Origin: a virus
DNA length: 64,000 bases
IMG/VR virus record: IMGVR_UViG_3300032282_005588
Coordinates: 16,083 to 80,082 of that record
Reading direction: 5' to 3' (one strand)
This document shows, one piece after another, positions 35,566 to 54,429 of the stretch (its first letter is position 1; the number at the start of each line of letters is the position of its first letter). A program made the translations under genes and the position numbers. The notes beneath the pieces are model-generated. The model had not been told where the DNA came from and did not search any database. It was given only the letters and a program-made list of their open reading frames with translations.

Positions 35566-35615
35566 ATAACGGTTGCAAATAAAACATCGTTTTAATGTGT
35601 TTTATTTGTTGTTAT
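35566..35615. repeat. attC-like hairpin 1
   Basis: ATAAC-GGTTG-CAAATAAAACA-tcgttttaatg-TGTTTTATTTG-TT-GTTAT. Confidence 0.85.
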
Positions 35616-35656
35616 GTTTTAGTTTTAAAAATTTTATACAAATAAAAAATAAATAT

Positions 35657-36025
35657 ATGGAAACAAAAAAAGCAGAAATAGAAATAAAAAACTTACTTGA
35701 TAGTGGTTTAAGTTTTGAATATGATTTTGATTACAATAATGTAAATAAAGTTAATTTAGCAATTAACAGAGAAGGATATTCTATAAAAGATATTATTTCA
35801 AAACTTAAACAAGGTGAGAAAATTACTTTTATGATAAATGATGGTGAAACTTGGAATGAAAAACAAGGCAATGAAAGTAAGTTTTTATACAATGAAAAAT
35901 ATGATGGTTCTATTTATTGGGAACACAAAACTTATGGTGATTGGGTAAGGGTTGATAGCAATATGGGTTCGTTACAAGAATGGTCAAAAGAATTAAATGA
36001 TAAGTTTTGTATAAAACAATCATAA
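35657..36025 (+). CDS. Cassette 1 hypothetical protein
   Basis: METKKAEIEI..., lying between GTTAT 35611 and ATAAC 36043. Confidence 0.7.
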   Translation: METKKAEIEIKNLLDSGLSFEYDFDYNNVNKVNLAINREGYSIKDIISKLKQGEKITFMINDGETWNEKQGNESKFLYNEKYDGSIYWEHKTYGDWVRVDSNMGSLQEWSKELNDKFCIKQS

Positions 36026-36042
36026 AATTTTTAAAATTAAAC

Positions 36043-36357
36043 ATAACGGTTGCGGATATATGAATGTAAAAAATTAATAATTAGAAAGATGATAACAATA
36101 CAAAATTTAACGGAATTAGGTTTTAGTGAGATACTTGATATATTCACTGGAAAACAAGTTTGGGTTTTAGGTGAAGAAGATACGGAGATATGTGGAAACC
36201 CCTGTAGATTACCAATATTATATTACAACATAGAAACTCAAACTTGTAAAGTAGTTAGGGGTGAATTTTGTGTTGTTCAACGAGAATGTAAATCGGAGGA
36301 AGAAATTAGAAAGTTTGTAGAATCTATTAATTTTTTATTTCATATATCCGTTGTTAT
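36043..36357. repeat. attC-like hairpin 2 with a ~250 bp coding loop
   Basis: ATAAC-GGTTG-CGGATATATGAA.TAAAAAATTAATA ... TATTAATTTTTTA.TTCATATATCCG-TT-GTTAT. Confidence 0.8.
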
Positions 36358-36418
36358 AAATAGTAAATTAAAATGGTATCAAAAATTGATTGGTGCATTT
36401 AAGAACAGAAGATTTTAA
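36089..36418 (+). CDS. Cassette 2 hypothetical protein
   Basis: MITIQNLTELGF..., mostly inside the hairpin loop and reading through GTTAT. Confidence 0.65.
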   Translation: MITIQNLTELGFSEILDIFTGKQVWVLGEEDTEICGNPCRLPILYYNIETQTCKVVRGEFCVVQRECKSEEEIRKFVESINFLFHISVVINSKLKWYQKLIGAFKNRRF

Positions 36419-36428
36419 TTTATTGTTT

Positions 36429-36555
36429 ATAACGGTTACAGATATATGTAGTTTTTTTCTTAAATTGAAACACAAAACTTAAATAATATGAACAAAGATA
36501 ATAAGAACACGGAAGTTGATAACACAGATAAAAAATTACATATATCTGATGTTAT
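36429..36555. repeat. attC-like hairpin 3
   Basis: ATAAC-GGTTA-CAGATATATGTAGTTTTTT ... AAAAAATTACATATATCTG-AT-GTTAT. Confidence 0.85.
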
Positions 36556-36709
36556 GAAACGTATTGACGAACTGATAGATGAATATAAACAAGCGAAAAT
36601 TAATATAGACACGTGTACAGATGACTTTGAATGGAATAATTTAGATAGAAGGATAAGTCATTTAAAACGCTTGTTTATAGAAATTGGTGTATGGAAATAT
36701 GTTTCATAA
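36488..36709 (+). CDS. Cassette 3 hypothetical protein
   Basis: Starts in the hairpin loop. Its stop TAA is part of ATAAC. Confidence 0.65.
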   Translation: MNKDNKNTEVDNTDKKLHISDVMKRIDELIDEYKQAKINIDTCTDDFEWNNLDRRISHLKRLFIEIGVWKYVS

Positions 36710-36793
36710 CGATTGGGTATATATGAAGTACCTAACGATAAACTTAAATAATTAGTAGAAACTTTATGAGGTATTTCATATATACCTTGTTAT
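36706..36793. repeat. attC-like hairpin 4
   Basis: ATAAC-GATTG-GGTATATATGAAGTACCT ... AGGTATTTCATATATACC-TT-GTTAT. Confidence 0.85.
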
Positions 36794-36805
36794 AAAACGT
36801 TTATT

Positions 36806-37048
36806 ATGAGATTTAAAAAATTGATTTATAAAAATTTCTTTGGAGAATACAACATTTTGATAACCATAACAGATGATGGTAAAACACCACACAGAGACAC
36901 ATTAATTCCAGATAGGGAAATATATAATTCACATATTTGGATTCACGATAATATTGTAAAAAAGAATCACACAAGAAAAGAAATTTTTATTCTTGATTCT
37001 ATTGTGAGTGATGACGAACTTAAAAGTGTTCTTGGAAATGTTTTATAA
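36806..37048 (+). CDS. Cassette 4 hypothetical protein
   Basis: Stop TAA lies within ATAAC 37045. Confidence 0.65.
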   Translation: MRFKKLIYKNFFGEYNILITITDDGKTPHRDTLIPDREIYNSHIWIHDNIVKKNHTRKEIFILDSIVSDDELKSVLGNVL

Positions 37049-37126
37049 CGTTTTGCACATAAGCGAAGGCACAAATTGCGTTGGCATTGTGCGGTTGGAT
37101 TTGGGCTTTTGCTTATGTGCTGTTAG
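37045..37126. repeat. attC-like hairpin 5
   Basis: ATAAC-GTTTT-GCACATAAGCGAAGGC ... GCTTTTGCTTATGTGC-T-GTTAG. Confidence 0.85.
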
Positions 37127-37163
37127 CAGTAGTACGGATTATTAACAAATAAATATAAATAGA

Positions 37164-37385
37164 ATGAGAATTTATCAATTAAGAACAGCAAAAGAGTTTT
37201 ACAACTCAATTAAAGGAAACTTCACAACAGAAGAATTAATGCAAATGTATGCAGAAGATGTAGCAAAAAGATTTGCTGCTGAATGTGTAAATGAGGCACT
37301 CGGTAATAAGATGGAAGTGTCAAACTCTTTGCATCACGCAATAGAAGGAAAGTACAAATCTATCATTTGGGAGAACGAAGGTTAG
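37164..37385 (+). CDS. Cassette 5 hypothetical protein
   Basis: Lies between GTTAG-CAGTAGTAC and GTATTACTG-CTAAC. Confidence 0.65.
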   Translation: MRIYQLRTAKEFYNSIKGNFTTEELMQMYAEDVAKRFAAECVNEALGNKMEVSNSLHHAIEGKYKSIIWENEG

Positions 37386-37393
37386 TATTACTG

Positions 37394-37521
37394 CTAACGG
37401 TCGGGTATTGTTGTCTGTTGGCGACTTAAACCACAAATGTTAAATTGAAAAACAAAATTAGATATGAGTACAAAAGTTAAATCGAAGCACAAAACCGCCA
37501 ATAGCAACAATACCTTGTTAT
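37394..37521. repeat. attC-like hairpin 6
   Basis: CTAAC-GGTCG-GGTATTGTTG.CTGTTGGCG ... CGCCAATAGCAACAATACC-TT-GTTAT. Confidence 0.85.
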
Positions 37522-37796
37522 CGGCTGCCTTTCTTATTAGCAAGGGCTTCAAGTTGGTAGAAGAAAGTCAAAGTCCGTTTGAAAATTTCAAAATGGATTA
37601 TTTTGTAAAAGAAGGGGTACTGCTTTTTTTCAATACGCCTGTAACCGAATGGAACGAAAATGATTTCCTTGTTGGATGTGCTGAAATGAGATGTGGGAAG
37701 TATTACGTTGTTGCTTTTAGGTGGATAAAAGAGCAAAAAGATATTATTGAAATTTACAAATCGGTAAAAGGTAAGGATTTGGATGGTGTCGGTTAA
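37464..37796 (+). CDS. Cassette 6 hypothetical protein
   Basis: Starts in the hairpin loop and reads through GTTAT. Confidence 0.65.
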   Translation: MSTKVKSKHKTANSNNTLLSAAFLISKGFKLVEESQSPFENFKMDYFVKEGVLLFFNTPVTEWNENDFLVGCAEMRCGKYYVVAFRWIKEQKDIIEIYKSVKGKDLDGVG

Positions 37797-37804
37797 GGTT
37801 GCCG

Positions 37805-37861
37805 CTAACTATTATATATACGCAACTACGTTTAATCACCAATAAAATCAACGGTTTTAAT
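37805..37861. other. attI-like site: last CTAAC core, not followed by a hairpin, abutting the integrase start
   Basis: CTAAC-tattatatatacgcaac..., which reads GTTAG on the minus strand. Confidence 0.55.
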
Positions 37862-38659
37862 ATGAAAATTCTTAAAATATTTGAGGAAAAGTTAAGATAT
37901 AAAAACTACTCAGATAAGAGTATTAGGTTATATATTTCATATTTGAGGCTCTTTTTAGAAAAAGAAAAGATAAAAGACCCATATCAAGTTAGAACCCAAC
38001 AAATAGTCTCATTTCTTGAAAACTACCCATTCACCAGTATAAGTCAACAAAATCAATATATTGGTACTCTTAAATTATTTGCTAAATATATATTAAGTAA
38101 AAAAGACATCCATTTAAGTAAAATGGAGAGACCCAAATCGGAAAAGAAACTACCCAGAGTTATTGATGGGGAATTTATCAAAGAAAAATTATCTAAAATT
38201 GAAAATATAAAGCACAAAGCAATACTTACCTTAACTTACTCTGTTGGATTAAGAGTGTCTGAAGTAGTTAATTTAAAGATTGAAGATATTGATTCCAAAA
38301 GAATGTTGATTCATATCAAAAACGCAAAGGGTAGGAAAGATAGATTGGTTCCGTTATCACCAAATGTTCTCAATCTATTAAGAGAATATTTTAAAGAATT
38401 CAAACCGACTCAATATCTATTTAATGGTCAAAACTCAAATCAATACTCAATAGGTAGTTGTCAACAAATTTATAAAAAATATATTGATAAAAACAGTTCA
38501 ATACATACTTTAAGGCATTCATCTTTTACAGGTTTACTAGAAAACGGAACTGATTTAAGAATAATACAAAAAATAGCGGGACATTCCTCATCCAAAACAA
38601 CAGAAATTTATACTCATGTCTCCAACCAAATGCTTTCAAAAATTAATTTGGTTATTTAG
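37862..38659 (+). CDS. Tyrosine recombinase (XerD/IntI-like with N-terminal SAM-like domain)
   Basis: Catalytic residues intact: GLRVSE (R), KGRKDR (K), HTLRH (HxxR), GHSS (H), TEIYTH (Y). Confidence 0.93.
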   Translation: MKILKIFEEKLRYKNYSDKSIRLYISYLRLFLEKEKIKDPYQVRTQQIVSFLENYPFTSISQQNQYIGTLKLFAKYILSKKDIHLSKMERPKSEKKLPRVIDGEFIKEKLSKIENIKHKAILTLTYSVGLRVSEVVNLKIEDIDSKRMLIHIKNAKGRKDRLVPLSPNVLNLLREYFKEFKPTQYLFNGQNSNQYSIGSCQQIYKKYIDKNSSIHTLRHSSFTGLLENGTDLRIIQKIAGHSSSKTTEIYTHVSNQMLSKINLVI

Positions 38660-38689
38660 GATGTTTCACATACATTAACATCATAATAA
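38647..38689 (+). promoter_or_regulatory. Early promoter TTGG-N19-TACATTAACATCATAATAA (first full copy)
   Basis: Full motif recurs at about 43632, 50559, 52698, 56833, 58435 and 58756, and on the minus strand at about 50405. Shorter TTGG-N19-TAYATT versions occur at 6965 and 9783, among others. Confidence 0.75.
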
Positions 38690-38707
38690 ATAAAAATAAA
38701 AATAAAA

Positions 38708-39502
38708 ATGATAAATCTACAGGCTCAATTCAAAACAAAAGAAGAAATTCGTTCTTTAGCTCCAAGTATCTTTACTGAAAATGGTGCTTCAAATGTATCA
38801 GAAAATTATACACATATTCCAACATATAAAATTATTGATGATATGGAATTGTTAGGTTGGAAACCAATTGATGCAAAAGAAGTTAAAGCAAGAAAATCAA
38901 TAGGATATCAAAAACACCTAATTGTATTCCGTAATGAAGATATTTTTATTAATGGAGAAGATGGAGACAATGTGTTTCCCCAAATATTACTTACAAATTC
39001 TCATGATGGGAAGAATGCATTTACATTTACAGCAGGTCTTTTTAGAATGATATGTGAAAATGGATTAGTACTTTCAACTAAGGAATTTGAAAATATAAAA
39101 ATTCGTCATTATGGTTATAATTTTGAAGAATTGCAAAACACAATTGAAATGATGGTTAACAAACTACCCCTAACAATTGATTCTATGAATAAATTTAAAC
39201 AAATTCAATTAGGTCAAGACCAAATGATGAAGTTTGCTGAGGAAGCTGTTAAGATTAGATTTAATAATGATATTGATAATATTAAAATTGATTTAGGTGA
39301 TTTACTTACTCCAACACGTATAGAAGATAGAGGGAATGATCTGTGGAGTGTATTTAATGTAGTTCAAGAAAAATTAACACATGGTGGGTTTAATTATAAT
39401 ATTGGTTCTAAAAATCGAAAAGCAAGAAAAATAAAAAATTTCAAACAAGATTTAGATATGAATATTAAATTACATGATTTGGCTTTAGAATATGCTAATT
39501 AA
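38708..39502 (+). CDS. DUF932/DUF945 family protein
   Basis: APSIF, YTHIPT, KHLIVFR, NSHDG, AGLFRMICENGLV, R.ED...DLWSVFNVVQE. Confidence 0.85.
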   Translation: MINLQAQFKTKEEIRSLAPSIFTENGASNVSENYTHIPTYKIIDDMELLGWKPIDAKEVKARKSIGYQKHLIVFRNEDIFINGEDGDNVFPQILLTNSHDGKNAFTFTAGLFRMICENGLVLSTKEFENIKIRHYGYNFEELQNTIEMMVNKLPLTIDSMNKFKQIQLGQDQMMKFAEEAVKIRFNNDIDNIKIDLGDLLTPTRIEDRGNDLWSVFNVVQEKLTHGGFNYNIGSKNRKARKIKNFKQDLDMNIKLHDLALEYAN

Positions 39503-41326: not shown

Positions 41327-44311
41327 ATGGTAAAAATAATAATGGAATTTGATAGCTCAGATGAAGCCCAAGAAGCAATTGATGGTAGTAAATGGAAACA
41401 AGCATTTTGGGAATTAAATAATGAGCTTAGAAACACTACCAAATATGATGTTAGTATTATCAATAATAACTTACAAGCAACAGATATTGAACAAGAAATA
41501 TGTTCTAAAGTTAGAGATATGATGTTTGAAATCCTTAATAGATGGAATTTAAAAATAGATTAAATTAATTGTGAAAACACGAATTCATGTTAATCAACAC
41601 CATATACGTTCTAATAAAACAAAAGGCACTACACTCCCAGTAATTACTATTAAACAAGGTAAAAATAATACTTATTGTAATGAAGTAGAAATATTAGGAC
41701 CTAGTAAAATTATTTATGGTGGTAGTGGTTGTGATGCAAAACCACTTTTAAGTTGTGGAGCTAGAGTTGTAATCGAAACGGAAAGTGCAATCAAAATTAT
41801 AAAATAGTTTTTATACTTGGATTTGATAAAAAATTAACATATATTAATATTATAATAAATTAATAATAAAAATGAAAAATAAATTAAAGAATGGACGATT
41901 AGTATTTATGATGTGGAGTATATTCCATATTATCACCCTTTTATATTTTGGTTGGAATTTAGTTCCTCAACCATTTGTTACCATTGATGCTATATTATTT
42001 GGGGGATTTATTGGATTTTATTTTGTACAACCTTTAAGTGAAATTTATGAACAGTGGGTTAATAATAAACTAAATAAATAATGATTAATAATATATTATT
42101 ACAAATTTTTGTTAAATCCTTTTTTATTACTATAACTCTCACTAGTGTAGTGTATGGGTTTATTGCTTATTTAAATAAAACTATAATTTACAATAAATGG
42201 CCACAACATGCTCAACATAGTATGTTAGTTACTGGGGTTATGATATTATTGATGATTATTTTTATTGGGTTTGTTGACTTTAAATATAATAAATAAATAT
42301 AATGGATATAAATGTAGATTTAGATGATATTTTATGGGGAATGAGTGATTGGGAAAAACAAGAAATGTGTGATAATTTATGTGATGATGGTTATACCCCA
42401 TCAACTCAATCAATCGATGATATTAAATCATTTTTCTTTGAGGTTGAAGGGAGAATTACTCATAATGAAAGAGAATTATTAGATATATTAATTAGAATTT
42501 GGTATAATAAACATTTTATAAATAATAAAGACATTGAGCAACTCAAAATATATGCTAAAAAAGGATTATAATAATCCAATTAAAATGACTTTTAATCAGT
42601 GGTTAAATCATTATCAAAACCTAAATGACCATCAATATACTAAATTTAAACCATATGGAAGTTCAATTGATTATTTTTTTCATCATAAAAAAGATGGTTA
42701 TAACACATATGGTGTAATAATTTAAATAATCAATCAATGAAAGAAATAATAATCAAATATTGTAAGGGAGAACCATTACAAATAACTGAAGCAGTATCCA
42801 TAATTGAAGAATACATGCATTATGTTAAAAAATATAATCGTGAATTAATAATTCAATTGTTGAATCCAATGAACCCAATGGGAAGATCAATGTTAGATAT
42901 AGCACTACAGACCTCCATGATTTATCTTCAATGGAAATATTCAATAAATAAATTATATAGTAAAGACGGGCAATTACTAATGGTATTTTAACGTGGAAGA
43001 TTTAAAAAATTTGAGAAATTTTTGTGATAAACAAATTAAAAAACATCCCCAATTAAAAGTGGATATTATAACTTGTTATAATCTTTGTTTAGATAATATT
43101 GAAGAAGGAGAATCTGTTGTTAATGAAATTGAATTATGTTTAACTAATATAAACTATATATTGAACATGTATTATTTAAAATAACATTAAATATAAACCG
43201 TTAATTATCAATATTATATAAAAAGCTACAATCAATTATTTGATTTTGTAGCTTTCTTTATGTATATTGACATTATAATAAAAATAAAAAATGACTAAAA
43301 AAGAATATCATAAACAAATCAATAAAAGATTTTATGAATATATTAATCAACATTTTCCAAATTATGAGCTTGATTTCAATGAAGGTTATGGTTATGTATA
43401 TTTAATGTGTGAAAATAAAAATGATTTAATTGAATATCACCAATCAAGACATGATTTATGTATACATAATTATTCTACAGATAAAGCAAAACAGGACATG
43501 CTACAAATGGAAAGATATATCAATGAGAATATTATTCCATATGTTAACATGGTTACTGAAGTTTAGATTGTTAATTACTAACGCTCTATAAAAACTGTAG
43601 ATGAATATTTGGATTTACAAAATTTATTACATACATTAACATCATAATAAAAATTAAAAAAATGAAAAAATCAGAAAAATTAATCTACAGTTTAGAAATA
43701 CTTAAAGAGGTATTACAAAACCAACTAAAAGAAGGTAGAGAATATGGTCAAAAAACAAATGCGGATTGTGAATCCGGTTGGTATATTGGTACTATCAAAA
43801 CAGCAATTGAAGAAATAGATCGTATTACTAAAATCACTAAATAATCTATGAAAACATCAAATTTAAAATCAGGATTTTCCCTTTATGGAAACAAAGGTAA
43901 TGTTTGGGAAAATAATGCTCACATTTATCAATCCGGTAAAGGAAATTTATGTGGTACTCCAGCATTAGCATCTAATTGGGCTAAGGAAATGAAGATGGAA
44001 GAAGCAAATTGTGAGAAATGTAATAAATTATATAATACTCTAGAATATAAAGTATAATAAACAATAAAATGCTTGTAGAGTGTATAGATATATCAAACAG
44101 ACCTGAAGACATACCAACATCAATGTGGTTAAAGAAAAAGGTTTACACTGTGGTGAGTAGAACATTTCATCCAATTCATAATTATTACTCACTTCAACTA
44201 GAAGAAGTACATCCACCCCCACCTTATATTGGATATAAGGAATCAAGATTTAAACCTATAGAAGATATTAGTATAATAGAATTAATAGAAGAAAAAATAG
44301 AAACAATATGA
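41327..44311 (+). other. Run of small hypothetical genes: 41327-41563, 41571-41807, 41872-42081, 42081-42296, 42302-42571, 42585-42725, 42737-42991, 42993-43184, 43291-43566, 43662-43844, 43848-44057, 44069-44311
   Basis: Tightly packed co-directional ORFs with A-rich leaders, several behind early promoters. Confidence 0.6.
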
Positions 44312-44616
44312 AGAATAAACTAGATAAACAATATACAGACCTGCTCCAAGATATCTTAGATAATGGAGTAAAAAAACAAACCAGAAATGGTGAAGTGTTA
44401 TCAATATTCGGTAGACAAATTCGTCACAACATGAAAGATGGTTTCCCACTTCTTACAACTAAGAAGATGGCTTGGAAATCAATTGTAACTGAGTTACTCT
44501 GGTTTCTCCGTGGTTCAACTCGAGGTGATGAGTTAGTAAGGCAAGGGTGTAATATTTGGGTAGGGGATATGTATGCTAATTATTTAAAAGAGTATGAAAA
44601 ACATAAAGAAAATTAA
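44308..44616 (+). CDS. thyA: Thymidylate synthase, N-terminal fragment
   Basis: QY.DLL..IL.NG, R, FG.Q.R, GFPLLTTKK, ELLWFLRG, NIW. Ends in its own stop. Confidence 0.9.
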   Translation: MKNKLDKQYTDLLQDILDNGVKKQTRNGEVLSIFGRQIRHNMKDGFPLLTTKKMAWKSIVTELLWFLRGSTRGDELVRQGCNIWVGDMYANYLKEYEKHKEN

Positions 44617-44752
44617 AAATAAATGGGTTTTTTAAGTAAAAGTACAATATTTATAAATGTAGAGTTGCGGCTACATGTAAGATATTTAATTAACTAAATG
44701 CTAATGGTGAGTAGAGTACCGCAATCTCGAAAGCCTTAGTATTTTTTATTTT

Positions 44753-45607
44753 ATGAATTACCTAAAAATTTACGAACAATTAATTGATAAAGCTAAGAGA
44801 GAAGATAGAGATTACATAAGTAATAAAATCTACGAAAGACACCACATACTTCCTAAATGTATGGGAGGGGATGGGAAAGTTAATCAATGGAGAACTCACC
44901 CCAATATAGTAATTTTAACTCCTCGAGAACATTATTTAGCTCACACTCTATTATGTGAGATATATCCTGAAAATTCTAAATTAAAGTTTGCATTATGGGC
45001 TATGTCTAATCAATTAGGAGAAAACAGAAAATATAAAATATGTTCTAGACAGTATGAAAGAGTGAGAGAAAACTATGTAAAACTAGTAAGAGGAGTACCT
45101 AAGACTGATGAGCATAAAATAAAGTTAAGTGAGGCATTAAAAGGAAGGGAAAGAGAGGAATTTACTGAATTACACAAAATTAATATCAGTAAAAATATTA
45201 AAGGAATTAAAAAATCAAAAGAACATAGAAAAAATCTCTCTAAATCCAAAAGCATTCCTGTATTTCAATATACTTTAGACGGTGTGTTTTTAAAACAATG
45301 GGAATCTGCCAAAAAAGCAGGAAATATATTAAATATAGACCCTGGAGATATTACAGGTTGTAGAAGAGGAGTAAAAAAGAGTGCTGGGGGATTTCTTTGG
45401 AAAGAAAATAAGATAGAAGTTAAACCCTACAAACATAATAACTCATCTAATATATTGCAGTATACTCTCGAAGGAGAGTTTATACAAGAATTTCAAAGTA
45501 TATCTAAAGCTTCCAAAATCTTAAAACTCAATCCCTCAGGAATATCTAATTGTGCTAATGGAAGATCTAAATATTCTGGTGGGTTTATTTGGAGATATAA
45601 AAAATAG
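44753..45607 (+). CDS. Free-standing HNH homing endonuclease with NUMOD3/NUMOD1 DNA-binding repeats
   Basis: YERHHILPKCMGG, LTPREHYLAH.LL, HK.K.S repeats, two QYTL.G.F...(W/F).S...A...L...GGF.W units. Confidence 0.88.
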   Translation: MNYLKIYEQLIDKAKREDRDYISNKIYERHHILPKCMGGDGKVNQWRTHPNIVILTPREHYLAHTLLCEIYPENSKLKFALWAMSNQLGENRKYKICSRQYERVRENYVKLVRGVPKTDEHKIKLSEALKGREREEFTELHKINISKNIKGIKKSKEHRKNLSKSKSIPVFQYTLDGVFLKQWESAKKAGNILNIDPGDITGCRRGVKKSAGGFLWKENKIEVKPYKHNNSSNILQYTLEGEFIQEFQSISKASKILKLNPSGISNCANGRSKYSGGFIWRYKK

Positions 45608-45633
45608 TTATTATTTTTAATAAATTAAAAGTT

Positions 45634-46509
45634 ATGAAATTTAAAAAAGAAGATTTACACCCAGATGGGAGACCATTCACCAAAGAAGAATTTATCAACA
45701 AAATAAAAACCGATGGTGAGTTTGCCAAGAGGTGGGGTGAATTAGGACCTGTGTATGGTAAGCAATGGAGACAATGGAGTACTCATAAAACTGTAGTAGT
45801 AGGGCATAATGGAAATCATAATGAATTTGGGACAATTGTTATAGACCAAATCCAAAACCTAATCAACGACCTTAAAACAAACCCAGACTCAAGACGACTA
45901 ATGGTTTCAGCTTGGAATGTAGGCGAATTAGACCAATGCGTGCTTCCACCTTGTCATTATGGATTTCAAGTTTATACAAGAGAGTTGAGTTTAAGTGAAA
46001 GAACTTTTTGGATTATGTCCAACAGACCTGAACAATTAGGGAGTCAAAATTATTTAGACGGAGATAGGCAAGGTATGAAATCAACTGATTATTATGGAGT
46101 ACCAACCAGAGCAATCTCTTTAATGTATAATACCCGAAGTCAAGATGTTCCATTAGGTACACCATTTAATATATCATCATATGCTCTATTGTTAGAAATT
46201 ATTGCGAAGATGGTTAATATGGTTCCTGAAGAGTTGATTACTAATATGGGTGATTGTCATATCTATCTAAACCAAATTGATGGGATTAAGGAACAATTAA
46301 CAAGAGAACCATATCCACTACCTAAATTGAATATTAATACAGAATGGTGGCCAACAGAAGGTGGTTCATGTGGTGAAGGTCCTTTAGATGTTCAAGCAGT
46401 ACTAGATGGTTTTTCTAGTGATTCTTTTGCAAGTTGTTTAATTGAAGAAGATATTCAGTTATATAATTATAAAAGTCATCCGGCAATCAAAATGCCTTTA
46501 TCAAATTAA
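45634..46509 (+). CDS. thyA: Thymidylate synthase, C-terminal catalytic fragment
   Basis: LGPVYGKQWR, DQI, PDSRRLMVSAWN, LPPCH, RSQDVPLG.PFN, GDCHIY.N. Confidence 0.92.
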   Translation: MKFKKEDLHPDGRPFTKEEFINKIKTDGEFAKRWGELGPVYGKQWRQWSTHKTVVVGHNGNHNEFGTIVIDQIQNLINDLKTNPDSRRLMVSAWNVGELDQCVLPPCHYGFQVYTRELSLSERTFWIMSNRPEQLGSQNYLDGDRQGMKSTDYYGVPTRAISLMYNTRSQDVPLGTPFNISSYALLLEIIAKMVNMVPEELITNMGDCHIYLNQIDGIKEQLTREPYPLPKLNINTEWWPTEGGSCGEGPLDVQAVLDGFSSDSFASCLIEEDIQLYNYKSHPAIKMPLSN

Positions 46510-46521
46510 TAAATAAAAATT

Positions 46522-47085
46522 ATGAAATCAAATTTAACAGAAAAATTATCGTCTATTTGCGGGAGTGCAGATAAGACTTATGGTTGTAATGATATTGAAT
46601 CAATAACACAACTAACAGAAGAGCAACGTATTCAAGTAGAAGCAGAATTAATTAACCATTTTGGGTTTGATAAAATTATATGGATGCAACTTCCCTCAGG
46701 TCTTACAGAAGACAAAAAAACAACAATAGTTGCAGAAACTAGAAAAATATCAGATTCAGACGATCCAACTCACAAACATAAAGTAGGATATATTTACACT
46801 TTAAACTTTATTCCAAAAATGTATGAATCGGGAGAAATGTATAAACCAGTAAAAGATGGTTGTGTGTTTGCTCCTATCATCTTCGATCCAGTAACTTTTA
46901 CGCCTACACAAAGTATTACATTAACTTGGTCACCTGAATTTCCTCAAGACATTAATGCACCAGAAAGAACTCTTGAAGACGAAAAGCAAATGATTCGTGA
47001 TATGTTAGAAAAGGTATTGGACAATCCTGAAGAGTATAGACCGGTTGGATATACAGGATGTTTACTAAGGTATGTGGCAGTCTAA
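46522..47085 (+). CDS. Hypothetical protein (thyA-array cargo 1)
   Basis: 187 aa between repeat copies 1 and 2. Confidence 0.65.
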   Translation: MKSNLTEKLSSICGSADKTYGCNDIESITQLTEEQRIQVEAELINHFGFDKIIWMQLPSGLTEDKKTTIVAETRKISDSDDPTHKHKVGYIYTLNFIPKMYESGEMYKPVKDGCVFAPIIFDPVTFTPTQSITLTWSPEFPQDINAPERTLEDEKQMIRDMLEKVLDNPEEYRPVGYTGCLLRYVAV

Positions 47086-47136
47086 TCACACCCAACAATT
47101 AAAGCGCCTTTAAGTAACTGATGCATATTTATTAAC

Positions 47137-47685
47137 ATGATAAAATTAATTGATTTGTTACGTGAAGTGAAAGCTGCAATCACTGATGATATGGTTATTG
47201 TACTAGACAAAGGGCCTACTTTGATATTATATAATAATAAAGAAGATGGCGTTTTAGGTTCGATAAATGTTTATAATAATGAGGTAACAGGTGTAGCTGC
47301 TGAAAAAGGTTTTGGGCCTATCATGTATGAATTAGGTATGGCTATGGTGTATCCAAAGCCATTACAATCAGATCGACGAGGTAATACTACAGAAGCAGCT
47401 GCAAATATTTGGAATAGGTTTATAGACGGTATCAACCCAAAAATAAAAGTGGAGAAAGTTAAACCAAGTGATAAGGATTATATGTCAGTATGGCCTGAGA
47501 CTGGAGAGGCTATTGACCCTTACTATTTAGATGGTTTTATTAACTATAAGTTTTACAATCCTGATAAATCAGTCCTCGATAAGTTAATTAAGAAAGGAGA
47601 TATTATACCAAAAGACAAACAAAAGGATATAATTAAGAGAGCTAATGATTTTTATCAAAGAAAAGTTAATCATCCCTACAACTAA
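47137..47685 (+). CDS. Putative GNAT-like protein with an MIKLIDLLRE N-terminus
   Basis: VAAEKGFGPIMYE and L.SD.....T.AA..IW. Late motif upstream. Confidence 0.5.
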   Translation: MIKLIDLLREVKAAITDDMVIVLDKGPTLILYNNKEDGVLGSINVYNNEVTGVAAEKGFGPIMYELGMAMVYPKPLQSDRRGNTTEAAANIWNRFIDGINPKIKVEKVKPSDKDYMSVWPETGEAIDPYYLDGFINYKFYNPDKSVLDKLIKKGDIIPKDKQKDIIKRANDFYQRKVNHPYN

Positions 47686-47735
47686 TCACACCCAGCAATT
47701 AAAGCACCTTTATCAAATTAACCATATTTATTAAC

Positions 47736-48167
47736 ATGATAAGATTAATTGATTTATTGAGTGAATCTCAGAATATACCTGAAGTATTATATCATTTTAC
47801 ATTACCTAAATATTTTGTAAATATGATAAAAACAAATACCATTAAGGCAGATCCTAAATTTAAACAAATATCATTCACTTCAGATCCTAATTTATGGGCT
47901 TTTAGAGAATTTAATGATGAGGATCAAGAAGTAGGAGTAAGATTAACTTTTAATAGTAAAGATTTACCTCCATTAACTCCATTTAAATATTCAGGAGCGC
48001 CAGGTGAAGAATATGGATATGAAGAAGAATATACTACAAATGTTGGAGATTTAAGACCATCAAATATTATGAATTTGATTAAAGATGTAACAGTAAATAA
48101 TTATTGGAAAGAATATCTCCAAAATAATCTTCCCAAAGACATATTTAATAAAATTAAATTTATATAA
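47736..48167 (+). CDS. Putative ADP-ribosyltransferase-like protein with an MIRLIDLLSE N-terminus
   Basis: LYHFT...ISFT...EEE arrangement. Confidence 0.4.
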   Translation: MIRLIDLLSESQNIPEVLYHFTLPKYFVNMIKTNTIKADPKFKQISFTSDPNLWAFREFNDEDQEVGVRLTFNSKDLPPLTPFKYSGAPGEEYGYEEEYTTNVGDLRPSNIMNLIKDVTVNNYWKEYLQNNLPKDIFNKIKFI

Positions 48168-48186
48168 AATAACAAAAAAATAAATT

Positions 48187-48396
48187 ATGGAAAATTTCGA
48201 AAAATTAAATTTAAAAGTTAGAATTCAAATTCTTGATGCTAATGACCAAATTCTTTTACAATCTACAATTAATCAAAATGATGTAAATGATTTAAGAGTT
48301 TATCAAGGTGTTAGTCTTGTAGATGAAACTTACCTGATGTTGTTAGAAACATTAAAACAAAAAATAGATAGTGAATCAATCACACCCAACAATTAA
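48187..48396 (+). CDS. Hypothetical protein
   Basis: 69 aa. The 3' end overlaps thyA repeat copy 4. Confidence 0.55.
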   Translation: MENFEKLNLKVRIQILDANDQILLQSTINQNDVNDLRVYQGVSLVDETYLMLLETLKQKIDSESITPNN

Positions 48397-48441
48397 AGCA
48401 CCTTTATCAAATTAACCATATTTATTATAAAAAAATAAACT

Positions 48442-49980: not shown

Positions 49981-50367
49981 TTAATTCATAACATAGGCTT
50001 TATCAGCCCATGTTTTTGCATTTACTGCTTTGTATTGGTCTTGACTATATAATTCAGTATTAAAATAAGTAGAATTAATATCACCAACAGTTATATTTCT
50101 TAATATTTCTTCATCTATGCATATAATTTTTTTACCTTTTATAGCAAAAACAGTAAACCACATATTCATACCTTCAGGTTTAAATTCAATTGATTGAAGG
50201 GCACCTTTTTGATAAACATTAAAAACCTCCATCACATTTTTAGCCATTGTGTTTTCAGAAATAACCAGAAAACCTGCTTTACATTTAACTATAGATCTAT
50301 AGCTACCATGTTGGTTACCAATCCACTCAGTTGTTCTTAATTTATTGATGTTAATTATTTTATTCAT
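49981..50367 (-). CDS. Hypothetical early protein
   Basis: 128 aa, with a minus-strand copy of the early promoter at about 50387-50428. Confidence 0.7.
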   Translation of the reverse strand: MNKIININKLRTTEWIGNQHGSYRSIVKCKAGFLVISENTMAKNVMEVFNVYQKGALQSIEFKPEGMNMWFTVFAIKGKKIICIDEEILRNITVGDINSTYFNTELYSQDQYKAVNAKTWADKAYVMN

Positions 50368-50448
50368 GATATTTATTTTTAATTCCTTATTACAACGTTA
50401 ATGTATGAAATTAGATCCGCATTGCCACATATTTCTCACAGTTTTCTA

Positions 50449-50514
50449 TAGCGCGTTAATTACTAACGCACTAAAATTTCATTGAAAGTTAGCGCGTTAA
50501 TTACTAACGCTCTA
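50449..50514. promoter_or_regulatory. Pair of palindromic operator-like sites between divergent promoters (consensus TAGAGCGTTA-ATTAC-TAACGCTCTA)
   Basis: Other copies at about 43570, 52576, 52594, 52634, 56728, 56769, 58371 and 58692. Confidence 0.75.
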
Positions 50515-50586
50515 CATATTTTGTTACAATCTTGGTTGGATTCCCAGAATACGTTGCATACATTAACATCATAATAAGAAAATAAA

Positions 50587-50907
50587 ATGAAAAAATTTAA
50601 TTACACCCAACTAGTAACAATTATTAATCAAGAAAAAGTAGTTAATTGGTTAAACTTAAGAGGTAAATCAGAACTTGCTAATAAAGTTGATGATATTAGT
50701 TATATGATTGGACATAAAGGTGAACGTTTTCCTGAATATGTTTTAATACAAACTATTAGGGAAATAGTTGGAGATAAATTAACAAATGAGATTGAATGTG
50801 ATATTATACAAATGATGGGTGAACCTAAGGATTTGTATTTCATTGGGATTTTACCTCATGATGTAAAAATTGAGAAAAAAGAAAGTAAATTAAATTTGGT
50901 TAAATAA
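50587..50907 (+). CDS. Hypothetical early protein
   Basis: Lies behind an early promoter. Confidence 0.65.
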   Translation: MKKFNYTQLVTIINQEKVVNWLNLRGKSELANKVDDISYMIGHKGERFPEYVLIQTIREIVGDKLTNEIECDIIQMMGEPKDLYFIGILPHDVKIEKKESKLNLVK

Positions 50908-50954
50908 AAAACAGAACGTATATTAACATTATAATAAAAATAAATAAAAAGGTT

Positions 50955-51296
50955 ATGAAAAATCAAGAAAGAAACGAGTTAATCACTCAAGCAACAAAAT
51001 TAGGAATAGCTAAAGCTTCCAATTTAAAAACAACAGCTCTTAGAGAAATGATTGCTGAAAAATTAGGTGTAAATTCTAAAGAACCAAAACCGGAAACACG
51101 TGGACGTAAAGTTGATCCGAATTCAGCTCGTCAAGCCCGTTTAACAGCAGGTCCAAAACAACGTGGTAGAAAACCAAATGCTGAATCAGCTCGTCAAGCC
51201 CGTTTAAGTCGTTGGGATGAAATGAAATCAAATGGAATTGAAGTTAAAAGAGGTCGTCCTGTAGGAACTAAAAAACAAGAAGAGGTTACCAAGTAA
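50955..51296 (+). CDS. Basic AT-hook-like DNA-binding protein
   Basis: RGRKV, RGRKP, KRGRP and a duplicated SARQARL. Confidence 0.7.
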   Translation: MKNQERNELITQATKLGIAKASNLKTTALREMIAEKLGVNSKEPKPETRGRKVDPNSARQARLTAGPKQRGRKPNAESARQARLSRWDEMKSNGIEVKRGRPVGTKKQEEVTK

Positions 51297-51306
51297 CCTT
51301 TTCTTT
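51282..51306 (+). terminator. Terminator hairpin
   Basis: AGGTTAC-caa-GTAACCT followed by a T-run. Confidence 0.55.
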
Positions 51307-51348
51307 AAATTTGGCTTATTAAAATAATTTCCGTATATTAACACCGTA

Positions 51349-52008
51349 ATGAAAATAATAGAAAAACCATTATCAGATAAACATAGTTGGTTGCTTAGAA
51401 AAGCATATGATGATATTCCATCTGAATTTGTTCCTGTAATTAAAGGTACACGTGTATTACCTATTAATTATATTGATTCTCCTAATGTTTTTTTCGAATT
51501 ACGAAATCGTTGGGAGCCAGGACAAAATGATTTATTTCCTGATGGTGGTTATGAGGTAGTAGATGTTAATGGGGGTGTACATAATTGTTTTTTAGATCAG
51601 GTGATAACTCACCCCCAAACGTTAGGTATGCGTAATTTTAAATTCGGTGAAACAAATGAATTAAAACCGGTTAAAATTAAGGTAATCAGAGATGGTAAAC
51701 GTGGTCGTAAACCATTAGATCCTGAAGTTAAAGCGCTTAGAGACGCTGAAATAGCTAAGCGCAAAGGTGGATCAAGAGGCCGTAAACCATTAGATCCTGA
51801 AATTAAAGCACAACGTGATATTGAATCAGCTAAACGTAAAGGTGGTAAGCGCGGTCGCAAACCATTAGATCCCGAAGTTAAAGCATTAAGGGATGCAGAA
51901 ACACTTAAACGTAAAGGTGGAAAACGAGGCCGTAAACCTAAAAAATCAACACCTAAATCACAATATATACCAACAGGTGGTAAACGTGGTAGACCTAAAA
52001 AGAAATAA
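51349..52008 (+). CDS. Protein with repeated AT-hook-like motifs (RGRKPLDPE x3, GKRGRP)
   Basis: Three 24-aa repeats. Confidence 0.75.
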   Translation: MKIIEKPLSDKHSWLLRKAYDDIPSEFVPVIKGTRVLPINYIDSPNVFFELRNRWEPGQNDLFPDGGYEVVDVNGGVHNCFLDQVITHPQTLGMRNFKFGETNELKPVKIKVIRDGKRGRKPLDPEVKALRDAEIAKRKGGSRGRKPLDPEIKAQRDIESAKRKGGKRGRKPLDPEVKALRDAETLKRKGGKRGRKPKKSTPKSQYIPTGGKRGRPKKK

Positions 52009-52035
52009 AATTGTGGGGTAGAGCAGTGGTAGCTC

Positions 52036-52297
52036 GGTTGAGTGTAAAAAATCGTTTTAATGTTTTTTACACTTTGTTATAAGTATGTAAAACAAAAATT
52101 ATACAATATGAAAGAAAAAATTGAAAATAGGTTAAAAGAGTTATATGATGAATACAAACATGTAACTGATAAAGATAGAGTTTGGATTAAACAAACAGGT
52201 GGTTTAACAAGAAGAGAACGAATTGAAAAATGTAAAATTCTAATAGAAGAGTTAGAAACATTATTAAATTCATAATTTTTGTTTTATTACTTATAAC
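52036..52297. mobile_element. Solo hairpin-first cassette inserted in the tRNA gene
   Basis: GGTTG-AGTGTAAAAAA-tcgttttaatg-TTTTTTACACT-TT-GTTAT-arm-gene-arm'-ATAAC. Confidence 0.85.
52108..52275 (+). CDS. Cassette-borne small helical protein (55 aa)
   Basis: MKEKIENRLKELYDEY... Confidence 0.65.
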   Translation: MKEKIENRLKELYDEYKHVTDKDRVWIKQTGGLTRRERIEKCKILIEELETLLNS

Positions 52298-52361
52298 GTT
52301 AGGCTCATAACCTAAAGGTCAGTGCGTTCGAATTTACTCCCCGCAACTAAATTAAATAAAT

Positions 52362-52571
52362 ATGTCTAAATTAAATTGTACCGCAAAACAAGCATTTTGG
52401 AATGCTCGTAAAAAAGATGGTGATGTTCAAACCATCTCAGAAGTAACAGGATACTCTGTATCTCATGTTTCAAACATTATTAGTGGAAGACGTAGAAACA
52501 ATGATATTATTGCTGATGCAATGTATAAAGTTTCACGTCGCCGAATTAAGAATTCAGAGCGAGTTCGATAG
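52362..52571 (+). CDS. Helix-turn-helix protein (Cro/XRE-like)
   Basis: VQTISEVTGYSVSHVSNIISGRR. Confidence 0.7.
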   Translation: MSKLNCTAKQAFWNARKKDGDVQTISEVTGYSVSHVSNIISGRRRNNDIIADAMYKVSRRRIKNSERVR

Positions 52572-52730
52572 TCCATTAGTAATTAACACGCTATAGAGCG
52601 TTGGTGATTAGTACCCTAACATAAACCTTTAGGGCGTTAATTACTAACGCTCTATATTTTTTCCGACTATTTATGTGGCCCATCGAATATTGTTTCATAC
52701 ATTAACATCATAATAAGAAATAATAATAAA

Positions 52731-53591
52731 ATGAAAATAATTAAATCAACCGAACCTAAAAAACGTGGTCGTAAATCTAAAGTAAGCGTTATTAAACCGT
52801 TTAATGCAGAACCTAAAAAACGTGGTCGTAAATCTAAAGTAAGCGTTATTAAACCGTTTAATGCAGCAGATATTAAATTGTTTCGTGGTAGTGATCTTAA
52901 ATTTAATGATTCATTATTTAAATCAATTCGTACTAATAGAGAGTTAGATGTTATATTGTCAACTGAAGGTGGTTTAATGCCTGGAACAAATATGATTATG
53001 GTTGGTGGTCCTGGATCTGGTAAATCAACTGTTGTGTTAGATATGTTAGCTGATTTTACACGTAAAGGTTTTAAATGTTTATTTGTTAGTGGAGAGATGG
53101 ATGAAATAGCTCATTACAAATATTGTAAACGATTACCTAAATTTTCTATTGTACAAACATTGTTTTTAAAGAACTATGCTTCGAATGTTATGGAAACGCT
53201 TGAACATGTTTTTAGTCAAGGTTATGATGTTATAGCAATTGATAGTATAGCTGAAGTAATTGAAATGCTTAGAGATAATTGTAAGTTAACTGAATCAGCA
53301 TCAGAAAGTTGGTTTTTAGGTTTACAAGATAGAATGAAAAAAGGTGAAAATAAAAATAAATATTACACTTCATTCATCAATATTCAACAAGTAACTAAGC
53401 AAGGTGATTTTGTAGGTAGCAATAGATTGAAACATATGACTGATGCTATGGCTCATATTGAGCGTTCTAAAGATGGTTTACAACGCAGTATACATTTCAG
53501 TAAGAATAGAGATTGTGATAAAGATTTTAAAATGTATTTTACAATATCTAAAGATTCAGTGTATTACAGTTATGAAACAGTATCAGAATAA
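52731..53591 (+). CDS. RecA-superfamily ATPase (RadA/Sms-like) with a duplicated basic N-terminal repeat
   Basis: ELD.IL..GG..PG, GGPGSGKST, FVSGE, IDSI, QVTK.GDFVG...LKHMTDA, SKNR. Confidence 0.8.
   Translation: MKIIKSTEPKKRGRKSKVSVIKPFNAEPKKRGRKSKVSVIKPFNAADIKLFRGSDLKFNDSLFKSIRTNRELDVILSTEGGLMPGTNMIMVGGPGSGKSTVVLDMLADFTRKGFKCLFVSGEMDEIAHYKYCKRLPKFSIVQTLFLKNYASNVMETLEHVFSQGYDVIAIDSIAEVIEMLRDNCKLTESASESWFLGLQDRMKKGENKNKYYTSFINIQQVTKQGDFVGSNRLKHMTDAMAHIERSKDGLQRSIHFSKNRDCDKDFKMYFTISKDSVYYSYETVSE
52752..52865 (+). repeat. Exact 57-bp tandem duplication encoding EPKKRGRKSKVSVIKPFNA
   Basis: Directly visible. Confidence 0.9.
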
Positions 53592-53643
53592 ATTTGGAAA
53601 ATTAAATTAATTAACGTACATTAACATTATAAAATAAAAAGTT

Positions 53644-54429
53644 ATGAGAAAAAATATAAATATAATTCCATTAAATAATGATATTAATAAACTACAAGCG
53701 TTTATCCCATCATTGAATCGTGAATGGAGAGATTCACAACGCATTAAATCAAAACCGGTTATGATTGAAACGATTGATGCTGTTAAGTATTTTCAAAATG
53801 AAGGATGGAATATAGCTGGTGCATATGAACAACGCTCTAAGAATCGTAAAATTGATTCACATTTTATTAGAATGGAACACCCAGATTTTAATATTAAAAA
53901 TAATAAAGGTAAAATAGATGCTGTTGCAACTATGAATCTAAGAAATAGTTGTAATGGAAATAAACCATTGGATGTTGATTTAGGTGTATTCCGACAAGTA
54001 TGTTCTAATAGATTATGGGCTAATACATCATATTCAAATCAAACAATTAGCCATTCAAATAGTGGTTATAGTGAATTATATAATATTTTAGGTAAATTAA
54101 ATATTTATACCCAATCTATATTAGATGAATTTAAAGATTTAAAACAACGAAAATTAACACCTCGTGAAATGATGCAATTATCTATTAAAGCAGCTGAATT
54201 AAGATTTGATGATAAACGTGAAGTAAAACATTATGCTAATCAATTACTTAATGTAGTAAGAGATGAAGATCAAGGAAATGATTTATATACAGTATATAAT
54301 AGGATTCAGGAAAATTTAACACAATCAGATCGTATGATTGATATGAATGGTAATATAATTGGTGGTGTAGATAATATGTTTGATGATGTGAGATTAAATA
54401 AAGAATTATTTGAATTAGTAACTATTTAA
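53644..54429 (+). CDS. DUF932/DUF945 family protein (second paralog)
   Basis: NSCNG, GVFRQVCSN, R.EDQGNDLYTVYNRIQENL. Confidence 0.75.
   Translation: MRKNINIIPLNNDINKLQAFIPSLNREWRDSQRIKSKPVMIETIDAVKYFQNEGWNIAGAYEQRSKNRKIDSHFIRMEHPDFNIKNNKGKIDAVATMNLRNSCNGNKPLDVDLGVFRQVCSNRLWANTSYSNQTISHSNSGYSELYNILGKLNIYTQSILDEFKDLKQRKLTPREMMQLSIKAAELRFDDKREVKHYANQLLNVVRDEDQGNDLYTVYNRIQENLTQSDRMIDMNGNIIGGVDNMFDDVRLNKELFELVTI

Follow-up and report, generated by a model that had tools for sequence, protein, structure and literature searches.

A solitary cassette in a split phage tRNA-Met gene, probably inserted off platform by an integron-like system

We report that a tRNA-Met(CAT) gene in a 64,000-nucleotide stretch of viral DNA (the window) is interrupted by a 262-nt segment that is, with high probability, a cassette of a phage integron-like system, inserted as DNA at an off-platform site and inactivating the phage's own tRNA-Met. 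Our comparisons establish the exact ends of the unit, a copy of it in an array elsewhere, an empty allele of the locus, covariation and strand bias in the hairpin sites, and the linkage of the arrays to a family of recombinases. We further infer that catalysis was by a 265-aa recombinase, that the substrate was single-stranded DNA, and that the folded tRNA gene mimicked a site. The off-platform insertion into a tRNA gene, together with its empty allele, is new.

The window comprises bases 16083 to 80082 of an 80-kb IMG/VR viral contig that is about 50% complete, so that another enzyme could be encoded elsewhere. Its G+C content is 26%, and its plus strand carries nearly all of the genes, which include a family-B DNA polymerase with 26 to 32% identity to T4-like gp43 proteins, a Cpn60 chaperonin, and sugar-pathway genes. 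Judged by sequence affinities, the host phage is a distant T4-like virus. Lake and freshwater metagenomes contain the same sequence as the window, no RNA run does, and a DNA search with the region 50000 to 54000 recovered no match among cultured phages. Several other features of the window were recorded in passing. A conserved intergenic motif (TTGG, about 17 nt, CATACATTAACATCATAATAA) is found just upstream of genes in at least eight copies (38644 to 38709, 43236, 43605, 50532, 52671, 56806, 58408, 58729, and others) and looks like a phage-specific promoter class. Two minus-strand tRNA-like genes in this otherwise plus-strand genome (49627 to 49701 and 49877 to 49975) have the same acceptor and T arms (GTCAGG...CCTGAC) and differ in the middle, with small minus-strand ORFs between them; one, of 99 nt, scored 36.9 bits against the Rfam tRNA model and was missed by ARAGORN, and the other was called as a tRNA-Asn with the odd anticodon ATT. 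A thymidylate synthase gene is apparently interrupted within 44308 to 48427, where an I-HmuI/NUMOD-type endonuclease ORF (44753 to 45607) is accompanied by a ThyA match (45634 to 46509) covering profile positions 81 to 265 only, and the thyA 3' end recurs four times (46472, 47084, 47684, and 48378).

The cassette array and its adjoining elements are as follows:

35566 to 37809, plus strand: cassette array of six full units, delimited by junction cores
37810 to 37821, plus strand: attI-like box TATTATATATAC, directly after the last TAAC and about 50 nt before the recombinase ATG
37862 to 38659, plus strand: Xer-type tyrosine recombinase of 265 aa, without the IntI insertion

Seven (A/C)TAAC cores punctuate the array (35566, 36043, 36429, 36706, 37045, 37394, and 37805). 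Behind every core but the seventh come, in order, a 5-nt linker beginning with G, a hairpin (termed H), TT or T, GTTA(T/G), and a stem, with a small ORF that is enclosed or ended by the arms of the stem. None of the cassette ORFs matched Pfam or PHROGs. At the end of the array (a caret marks the junction here and below), the box TAAC^TATNATATAT (likewise TAAC^TATTATATAT) is conserved about 50 nt before the recombinase, and TAAC^TAT(N)ATATAT occurs 50 to 60 nt before the recombinase start at most of about 60 related loci. We infer this box to be the counterpart of attI; with its function as an insertion site thus inferred, the integron criterion of a fixed attI next to the integrase gene is met. 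In several cassettes, the stop codon is the TAA of ATAAC. A second hairpin class, seen at 36434 to 36556 and in H modules of five other contigs (L007, L039, L068, L030, and L014), contains, within the recombination-site hairpin itself, both a start codon and a run of about 23 conserved codons (MNKD...KKLHISD), so that different cargo ORFs are fused in frame to a portable N terminus and translation start. Two DUF932-family genes are also present (38708 to 39502 and 53644 to 54429), one of them directly after the recombinase and behind a strong promoter-like motif.

The recombinase is matched by Pfam Phage_integrase (8e-33) and a Phage_int_SAM_4 N-terminal domain; the RxxE, HxLRH, GH, and Y motifs are present, and its best matches of solved structure are archaeal XerA proteins. 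In NCBIfam it scored 177 bits for XerA against a cut-off of 220, about 147 bits for XerD and XerC against cut-offs of 330 and 335, and 148 bits for the integron integrase TIGR02249 against a cut-off of 265, with only profile positions 1 to 181 of 315 covered. It has 29 residues where Vibrio IntI4 (2a3v) has 77, indicating that the IntI-specific insertion is absent, and the criterion of an IntI-family integrase with that insertion (the I2 helix region) is not met. The likeness to integrons drawn by an earlier sequence-only reading of this DNA consequently holds for the layout of the system but not for its enzyme, which fails the IntI membership test. Homologues 52 to 86% identical to the recombinase are encoded in more than 80 viral contigs of up to 362 kb, and the closest integrases in cultured phages, those of Polaribacter and Cellulophaga phages, reach only 34 to 37% identity. 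Junctions of the ATAACGGTTG type are found almost only upstream of the recombinase and co-oriented with it, at about 60 of 80 related loci, and are rare downstream of it or on the other strand. Motif matches downstream of recombinase genes, considered as candidate off-platform cassettes, were discarded as chance matches inside genes.

Array cassettes recur at 95 to 99% DNA identity (84 to 99% protein identity for their ORFs) in phages whose recombinases are only 64 to 68% identical to that of the window:

Unit 1: 99.4% DNA identity with a cassette of L039 (recombinase of that phage 66% identical)
Unit 2: 94.8% DNA identity with a cassette of L015 (recombinase 68% identical)
57-aa gene: 84% protein identity with a gene of L053 (recombinase 64% identical)

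Between the window and the phages with the closest recombinases, no shared array segment reached 100 nt at 88% identity or above, bar one match to an H module, in L007.

The split tRNA gene lies 14 kb from this array and is organized thus:

52012 to 52035, plus strand: 5' part of tRNA-Met(CAT), with the acceptor 5' strand and the D arm, ending in the D-stem GCTC (ARAGORN on the rejoined sequence)
52036 to 52297, plus strand: solo cassette, 262-nt mobile unit, ends ambiguous by one base either way (from identity with L014 and the empty-allele joints)
52036 to 52040, plus strand: unpaired 5-nt linker GGTTG (from the linker tally)
52041 to 52073, plus strand: H hairpin, with an 11-bp stem (52041 to 52051 and 52063 to 52073) and an 11-nt loop TCGTTTTAATG at 52052 to 52062 (from covariation)
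52076 to 52102, plus strand: GTTAT core (52076 to 52080) and 5' arm (52081 to 52102) of the gene-enclosing A stem (from DNA folds)
52108 to 52275, plus strand: cassette ORF of 55 aa, function unknown
52272 to 52297, plus strand: 3' arm (52272 to 52292) and ATAAC core (52293 to 52297), with the crossover beside the final C
52298 to 52346, plus strand: 3' part of the tRNA-Met, with G26, the anticodon arm, variable loop, T arm, acceptor 3' strand, and discriminator

As it stands, the locus is not recognized as a tRNA by ARAGORN or Rfam. The sequence-only reading had asserted that removal of the insert restores a cloverleaf, and this is borne out: with 52036 to 52297 deleted, ARAGORN calls a tRNA-Met(CAT), a cloverleaf with an anticodon loop that meets the requirement for membership among tRNA genes. 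The call persists when the deletion is moved one base to the left or right, the two ends having C and G in common. As a control, we made 4,706 brute-force joins of cassette-like starts to TAAC ends across about 280 loci and the whole contig, and only the 52036-to-52297 join gave a tRNA, apart from one marginal spurious match; the restoration is not a matter of chance. Over its 5' two-thirds the rejoined tRNA does not differ from intact tRNA-Met genes of other viral contigs. In both the occupied and the empty allele (see below) the T arm is non-canonical, in agreement with the imperfect T stem noted earlier; it is weaker in the occupied one, and that of the empty allele is also unusual, having either a bulged C or a stem of only 4 bp. 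The gene immediately preceding the tRNA (51349 to 52008) has 75-bp tandem repeats rich in GGKRGRKP (AT-hook-like) units, and a similar motif occurs at 51098 to 51207 and 52752 to 52865.

Every element of the array architecture that the insert had been said to possess is found in order at 52012 to 52346. The claimed identity of its loop with that of the first array hairpin also stood, the loop TCGTTTTAATG being the same as that at 35587 to 35597. TT separates the H hairpin from GTTAT, and 52076 to 52102 pairs with 52272 to 52297 in DNA folds of either strand. The stem-plus-loop pattern of the solo cassette is unique in the window, and no matches are expected from shuffled sequences. The 55-aa ORF had no match in Pfam or PHROGs, and in IMG/VR a protein identical to it was found only in the array of the contig L014.

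It is this array that fixes the ends of the mobile unit. Positions 52035 to 52298 of the window are 100% identical over 264 bp to an array cassette at L014:1917 to 2180, in a phage whose recombinase is 71% identical in protein and 78% in DNA to that of the window. The left edge of the identity is the C before GGTTG (ATAAC in L014 versus GCTC in the window), and the right edge is the G after ATAAC, from which L014 continues as GTCAC and the window as TTAGG. The mobile unit thus consists of the linker, H, the GTTAT-arm, the gene, and the complementary arm with ATAAC, a block running from the linker G to the C of ATAAC that confirms the hairpin-plus-downstream-gene unit of the sequence-only reading. 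Independent support for a site-first, gene-second cassette comes from the pairing partners of GTTAx: in 152 of 166 cassettes its variable base x is complementary to that of the xTAAC within the same unit, whereas pairing with the xTAAC of the upstream neighbor is possible at only 19 of 38 junctions. With a 100% identical unit in two contexts and an empty allele in three metagenomes, the mobility formerly inferred for the cassettes is established, and the criterion that they move as discrete units is met.

After ATAAC the locus reads G-TTAGG-CTCATAA-CCTAA, followed by the rest of the tRNA, so that the plus-strand GTTAGGC previously pointed out at the target is indeed there, at 52298 to 52304. 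The donor core and the target CTC^G have only CG in common, and the tRNA junctions are compatible with three registers, TAA^CG, TAAC^G, and TAACG^. The last junction of the array reads TAAC^TAT, without a G, which removes the TAACG^ register and places the exchange 5' of the G. The earlier placement of the crossover at the shared CG is accordingly upheld and narrowed: comparison of the junctions supports TAA^C or TAAC^G, that is, either side of the C in TAAC^G. Both remaining registers would require a plus-strand exchange between a donor ...ATAA(C)^G... and a target ...GCT(C)^G.... An alignment by way of CTAAC^G on the minus strand of the tRNA was rejected, as it would give the opposite cassette orientation, which is not seen.

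The empty allele that the sequence-only reading had proposed to search for was recovered from metagenomes. Logan contigs from four runs of four studies were aligned to 51400 to 52900; these are assembled contigs, which hide rare variants. In the lake metagenomes X2, X7, and X16, from three studies, contigs join 52034 to 52297 with 2 nt shared and, by record coordinates, no extra letters. The depths of these empty joints (39.2, 5.3, and 10, respectively) are close to those of the flanks, and the depth of the cassette ORF in the same runs is 0 to 7. In X1, which is probably the source sample of the window, contigs cross both cassette junctions, with a cassette depth of 34 versus 37 to 40 for the flanks. 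A further X1 contig (depth 6.4, with a 21-nt side) joins 52034 to 52300 with TGC between; it is probably the tRNA-Met of another organism admitted at the 85% threshold, the other possibility being a minor variant empty allele, and it remains unresolved. An orthologous empty site was not found in IMG/VR: the five contigs with the closest recombinases are without the tRNA-locus region, homologues of the downstream 69-aa gene (L277 to L284) have no tRNA upstream, and 68 viral contigs with the same anticodon arm have no flanking genes in common with the window.

The two alleles also differ in the state of the tRNA. Their flanks are about 99% identical (9 differences in 1,007 nt, or 0.9%), and positions 52012 to 52035 are identical in the empty-allele contigs, whereas the 3' half of the tRNA with its trailer has 3 differences in 51 nt (P = 0.011 against the 0.9% of the flanks). 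At all three positions (52334, 52335, and 52348), the occupied allele has T and the empty alleles have C; the first two changes turn two T-stem G-C pairs into G.T, and the third, just beyond the tRNA, turns an encoded CCA into CTA. These C-to-T changes fit a relaxation of constraint after knock-out and speak against rescue at the RNA level, so that the knock-out earlier envisaged is favored over splicing; the unusual T arm of the empty allele keeps us from reading more into them. Restoration by excision, the other fate that the sequence-only reading put forward, is conjectural. In the nearby RecA/KaiC-like ATPase gene (52731 to 53591), a perfect 57-bp tandem duplication (52752 to 52865) is likewise polymorphic, the X2, X7, and X16 contigs having a single copy (joint of 52751 to 52809).

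Across the loci of the family, distinct short sites number 101 on the gene strand versus 3 on the opposite strand. Among these 101 unique sites GGTTG is the linker of 35, other G-initial pentamers following, and hardly any linker of the family departs from G at its first position (alignment A1 has an invariant G6). The 38 unique sites with the loop TCGTTTTAATG, which is itself nearly invariant within its class, show compensatory changes in 10 of 11 stem pairs and 98.8% of cells paired, and none of 500 shuffles reached their covariation score. Non-Watson-Crick stem positions comprise 99 G(5')-T(3') combinations versus 5 C-A and 5 T-G, a bias indicating that it is the plus strand, as DNA or RNA, that is selected to fold. 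Although TAAC/GTTA cores and covarying stems are present, the integron criterion for attC is not met: the H stems are ungapped and without bulged bases, the 7-nt boxes RYYYAAC/GTTRRRY are not conserved in full, and strands are exchanged at the 5' box and not at G^TT of the 3' box. The H-plus-arm module is 10 to 20 times deeper than its flanks in metagenomes, so that it must front many different cassettes. A scan of the viral collection with the pattern ATAACGGTTG...TTGTTAT recovered more than 114 loci; the pattern has only 17 fixed bases, and by a rough estimate a comparable number is expected by chance, so these loci were used only as extra sequence for the site tallies and not as counts.

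Insertion of a cassette has to be weighed against other origins of the split gene. The segment could be a tRNA intron (group I, bulge-helix-bulge, or of a new kind) that is spliced from the RNA, leaves the tRNA functional, and spreads by homing. Its exact removal does restore the cloverleaf, presence/absence polymorphism is typical of mobile introns too, and the plus-strand G.T bias fits RNA folding; but we found no Rfam intron or ribozyme match in the window (E up to 1), and the ORF takes 165 of the 262 nt, leaving no room for a group I core. The fold puts the junctions between hairpins and not in 3-nt bulges around a 4-bp helix, for which reason bulge-helix-bulge was dropped, and neither form of the intron criterion (ribozyme core or bulge-helix-bulge at the junctions) is met. 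In addition, the identical unit in the L014 phage sits in a cassette array and not in a tRNA, and the loss of two T-stem G-C pairs and the CCA in the occupied allele is unexpected for a working tRNA, all of which makes an intron very improbable in our view. An assembly chimera arising from the repeated hairpin module would be compatible with the excess depth of the hairpin-plus-arm region, which marks it as a repeat, but scarcely with the independently assembled Logan contigs of X1, which cross both junctions by about 30 nt at a cassette depth near that of the flanks and among which no empty joint of this kind was seen; we give it almost no credence.

Harder to set aside, if still unlikely, is an insertion made without the array's recombinase, by illegitimate or microhomology recombination or by template switching at hairpins while the genome undergoes T4-like recombination-dependent replication. 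T4 is a distant relative of this phage, donor and target are alike in no more than the 2 nt CG, and a single event is at issue, no other split tRNA or off-platform cassette having been found in about 280 loci. Moreover, such a mechanism has been proposed for the PeSL cassettes of T4-type phages, the shuffling of which reportedly needs no dedicated recombinase (PMC2839356, PMC4122927). However, the ends of the insert are those of the array junctions to the base, the arrays are tightly linked to the recombinase gene and the attI-like box in dozens of phages, and random microhomology events would not reproduce the exact unit. For a single event, recombinase-independent illegitimate recombination nevertheless cannot be excluded. 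Transposons with terminal inverted repeats and those of IS200/IS605 or MITE type were rejected: the inverted arms are internal, with the linker and the H hairpin outside them and still in the unit, and beyond the shared CG nothing is duplicated. The ORFs scanned, which were not all of those in the window, included no transposase.

Our preferred reading, the insertion of a cassette as DNA, may be cast as the following sequence of steps, each of them inferred from the anatomy and from what is known of IntI; the end products alone are observed. The cassette would be excised as a circle. The plus (coding) strand of this circle is predicted to fold into one rod comprising, in order, the gene loop, a long A stem ending in GTTAx/xTAAC, an internal loop of 5 by 2 nt, the H stem, and the conserved loop. 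The Xer-type recombinase would bind both helices, cleave beside the C of TAAC, and exchange that strand with a target, which would usually be the TAAC^TATNATATAT box before its own gene and, in the tRNA, CT(C)^G between the D-arm and anticodon-arm sequences on the same strand. The product would be resolved by replication, as in integrons. When the plus strand of the occupied locus is folded as DNA, one crossover point falls between the D-arm hairpin and the linker, and the other separates the A stem from the anticodon hairpin. More speculatively, the folded tRNA gene, which presents a helix, a one-base spacer, and a hairpin at the target point, may mimic a site, and the abutting GTTAG/CTAAC duplex, identical to the R-box helix, may also have helped. 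Of the secondary structured site postulated by the sequence-only reading, the location 14 kb from the array is a fact, and targeting on account of structure is an inference. The link between the recombinase and the event is backed by no experiment and by no circle or excision junction at the level of reads, and the plus-strand G.T bias fits an RNA fold equally well as a single-stranded DNA fold.

The movement of integron cassettes is usually inferred from comparing arrays. Here, the occupied site, the empty site, and a donor-type copy are all available, base-exact, from nature. This natural before-and-after pair fixes the unit as site first and gene second, locates the crossover to within one base of the C of TAAC^G, and shows the system acting outside its platform, at a cost to the phage of a lost tRNA gene. 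We are inclined to go further, with rather less assurance, and propose that large freshwater T4-like phages run their own analogue of the integron, with a minimal Xer-type recombinase that can dispense with both the I2 helix and extrahelical bases, recombination of site-first cassettes by way of their folded coding strand, and off-platform integration into any DNA folding into a helix, a short spacer, and a hairpin, a tRNA gene being one case. If true, this would be a general route for cassette spread and gene knock-out across phage genomes. The cassette junction, the attI-like box, and the tRNA target form a concrete set of substrates for bench tests on a recombinase that performs an integron-like task although it lacks the insertion considered indispensable for recombining attC, and such tests would bear on the origin of integrons from Xer-type enzymes.

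Full-text literature searches found no published description of a recombinase-plus-hairpin platform of this kind. Tyrosine integrases of phages and genomic islands target tRNA genes, the symmetry of whose stems is a plausible lure. The present case is comparable in that an element with a tyrosine recombinase is found in a tRNA gene, but those integrases enter the gene near its 3' end and make it whole again by means of a duplicated segment, whereas the solo cassette lies between the D and anticodon arms, with nothing duplicated and the gene broken. Integrons and clusters of attC sites (CALINs) have been reported in phage genomes (Qi et al. 2023, PMC9892861), with phage-carried attC-type sites and cassettes that include those of a Polaribacter phage; these, however, are bacterial-type attC sites found with IntegronFinder and recombined by the bacterial IntI1, and neither a recombinase platform of the phage's own nor a site-first unit is described in that work. 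The PeSL elements (PMC2839356, PMC4122927) are reported likewise to involve small ORFs of T4-like phages that are bounded by conserved stem-loop motifs and shuffled between phages, but the motifs are of promoter-terminator type, joining an early promoter to a stem-loop terminator, and are thought to recombine by homology, whereas the present system has unit ends exact to the base, an attI-like box, and a tyrosine recombinase dedicated to it. This recombinase and this box speak for a mechanism other than that of PeSL.

A further close comparison is with bacterial integrons themselves. In both systems, single-gene cassettes stand in a row and point the same way, and the gene for a tyrosine recombinase adjoins a fixed insertion site. 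The sites of both are folded hairpins in which AAC/GTT cores are accompanied by an unpaired spacer and another helix, and folding favors one strand. Both also have cassettes common to otherwise divergent genomes and, on rare occasions, insertion at a site off the consensus, where a solo cassette is left stranded. Cassette insertion at secondary integron sites was reportedly documented in the 1990s by the groups of Francia and Recchia. The phage rod resembles a folded attC in that its TAAC/GTTA helix is like an R box and its hairpin like an L box, with an unpaired spacer as well, although it is without extrahelical bases. Unlike its integron counterparts, the phage recombinase lacks the IntI insertion, and the phage hairpins are without bulged bases; the crossover is at the 5' box, which makes the units site-first and gene-second, the strand that folds is the coding one, and long gene-enclosing arms extend the R helix. 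The recombinase gene, moreover, lies downstream of the array and is co-directional with it, and the host of the whole system is a virulent-type T4-like phage.
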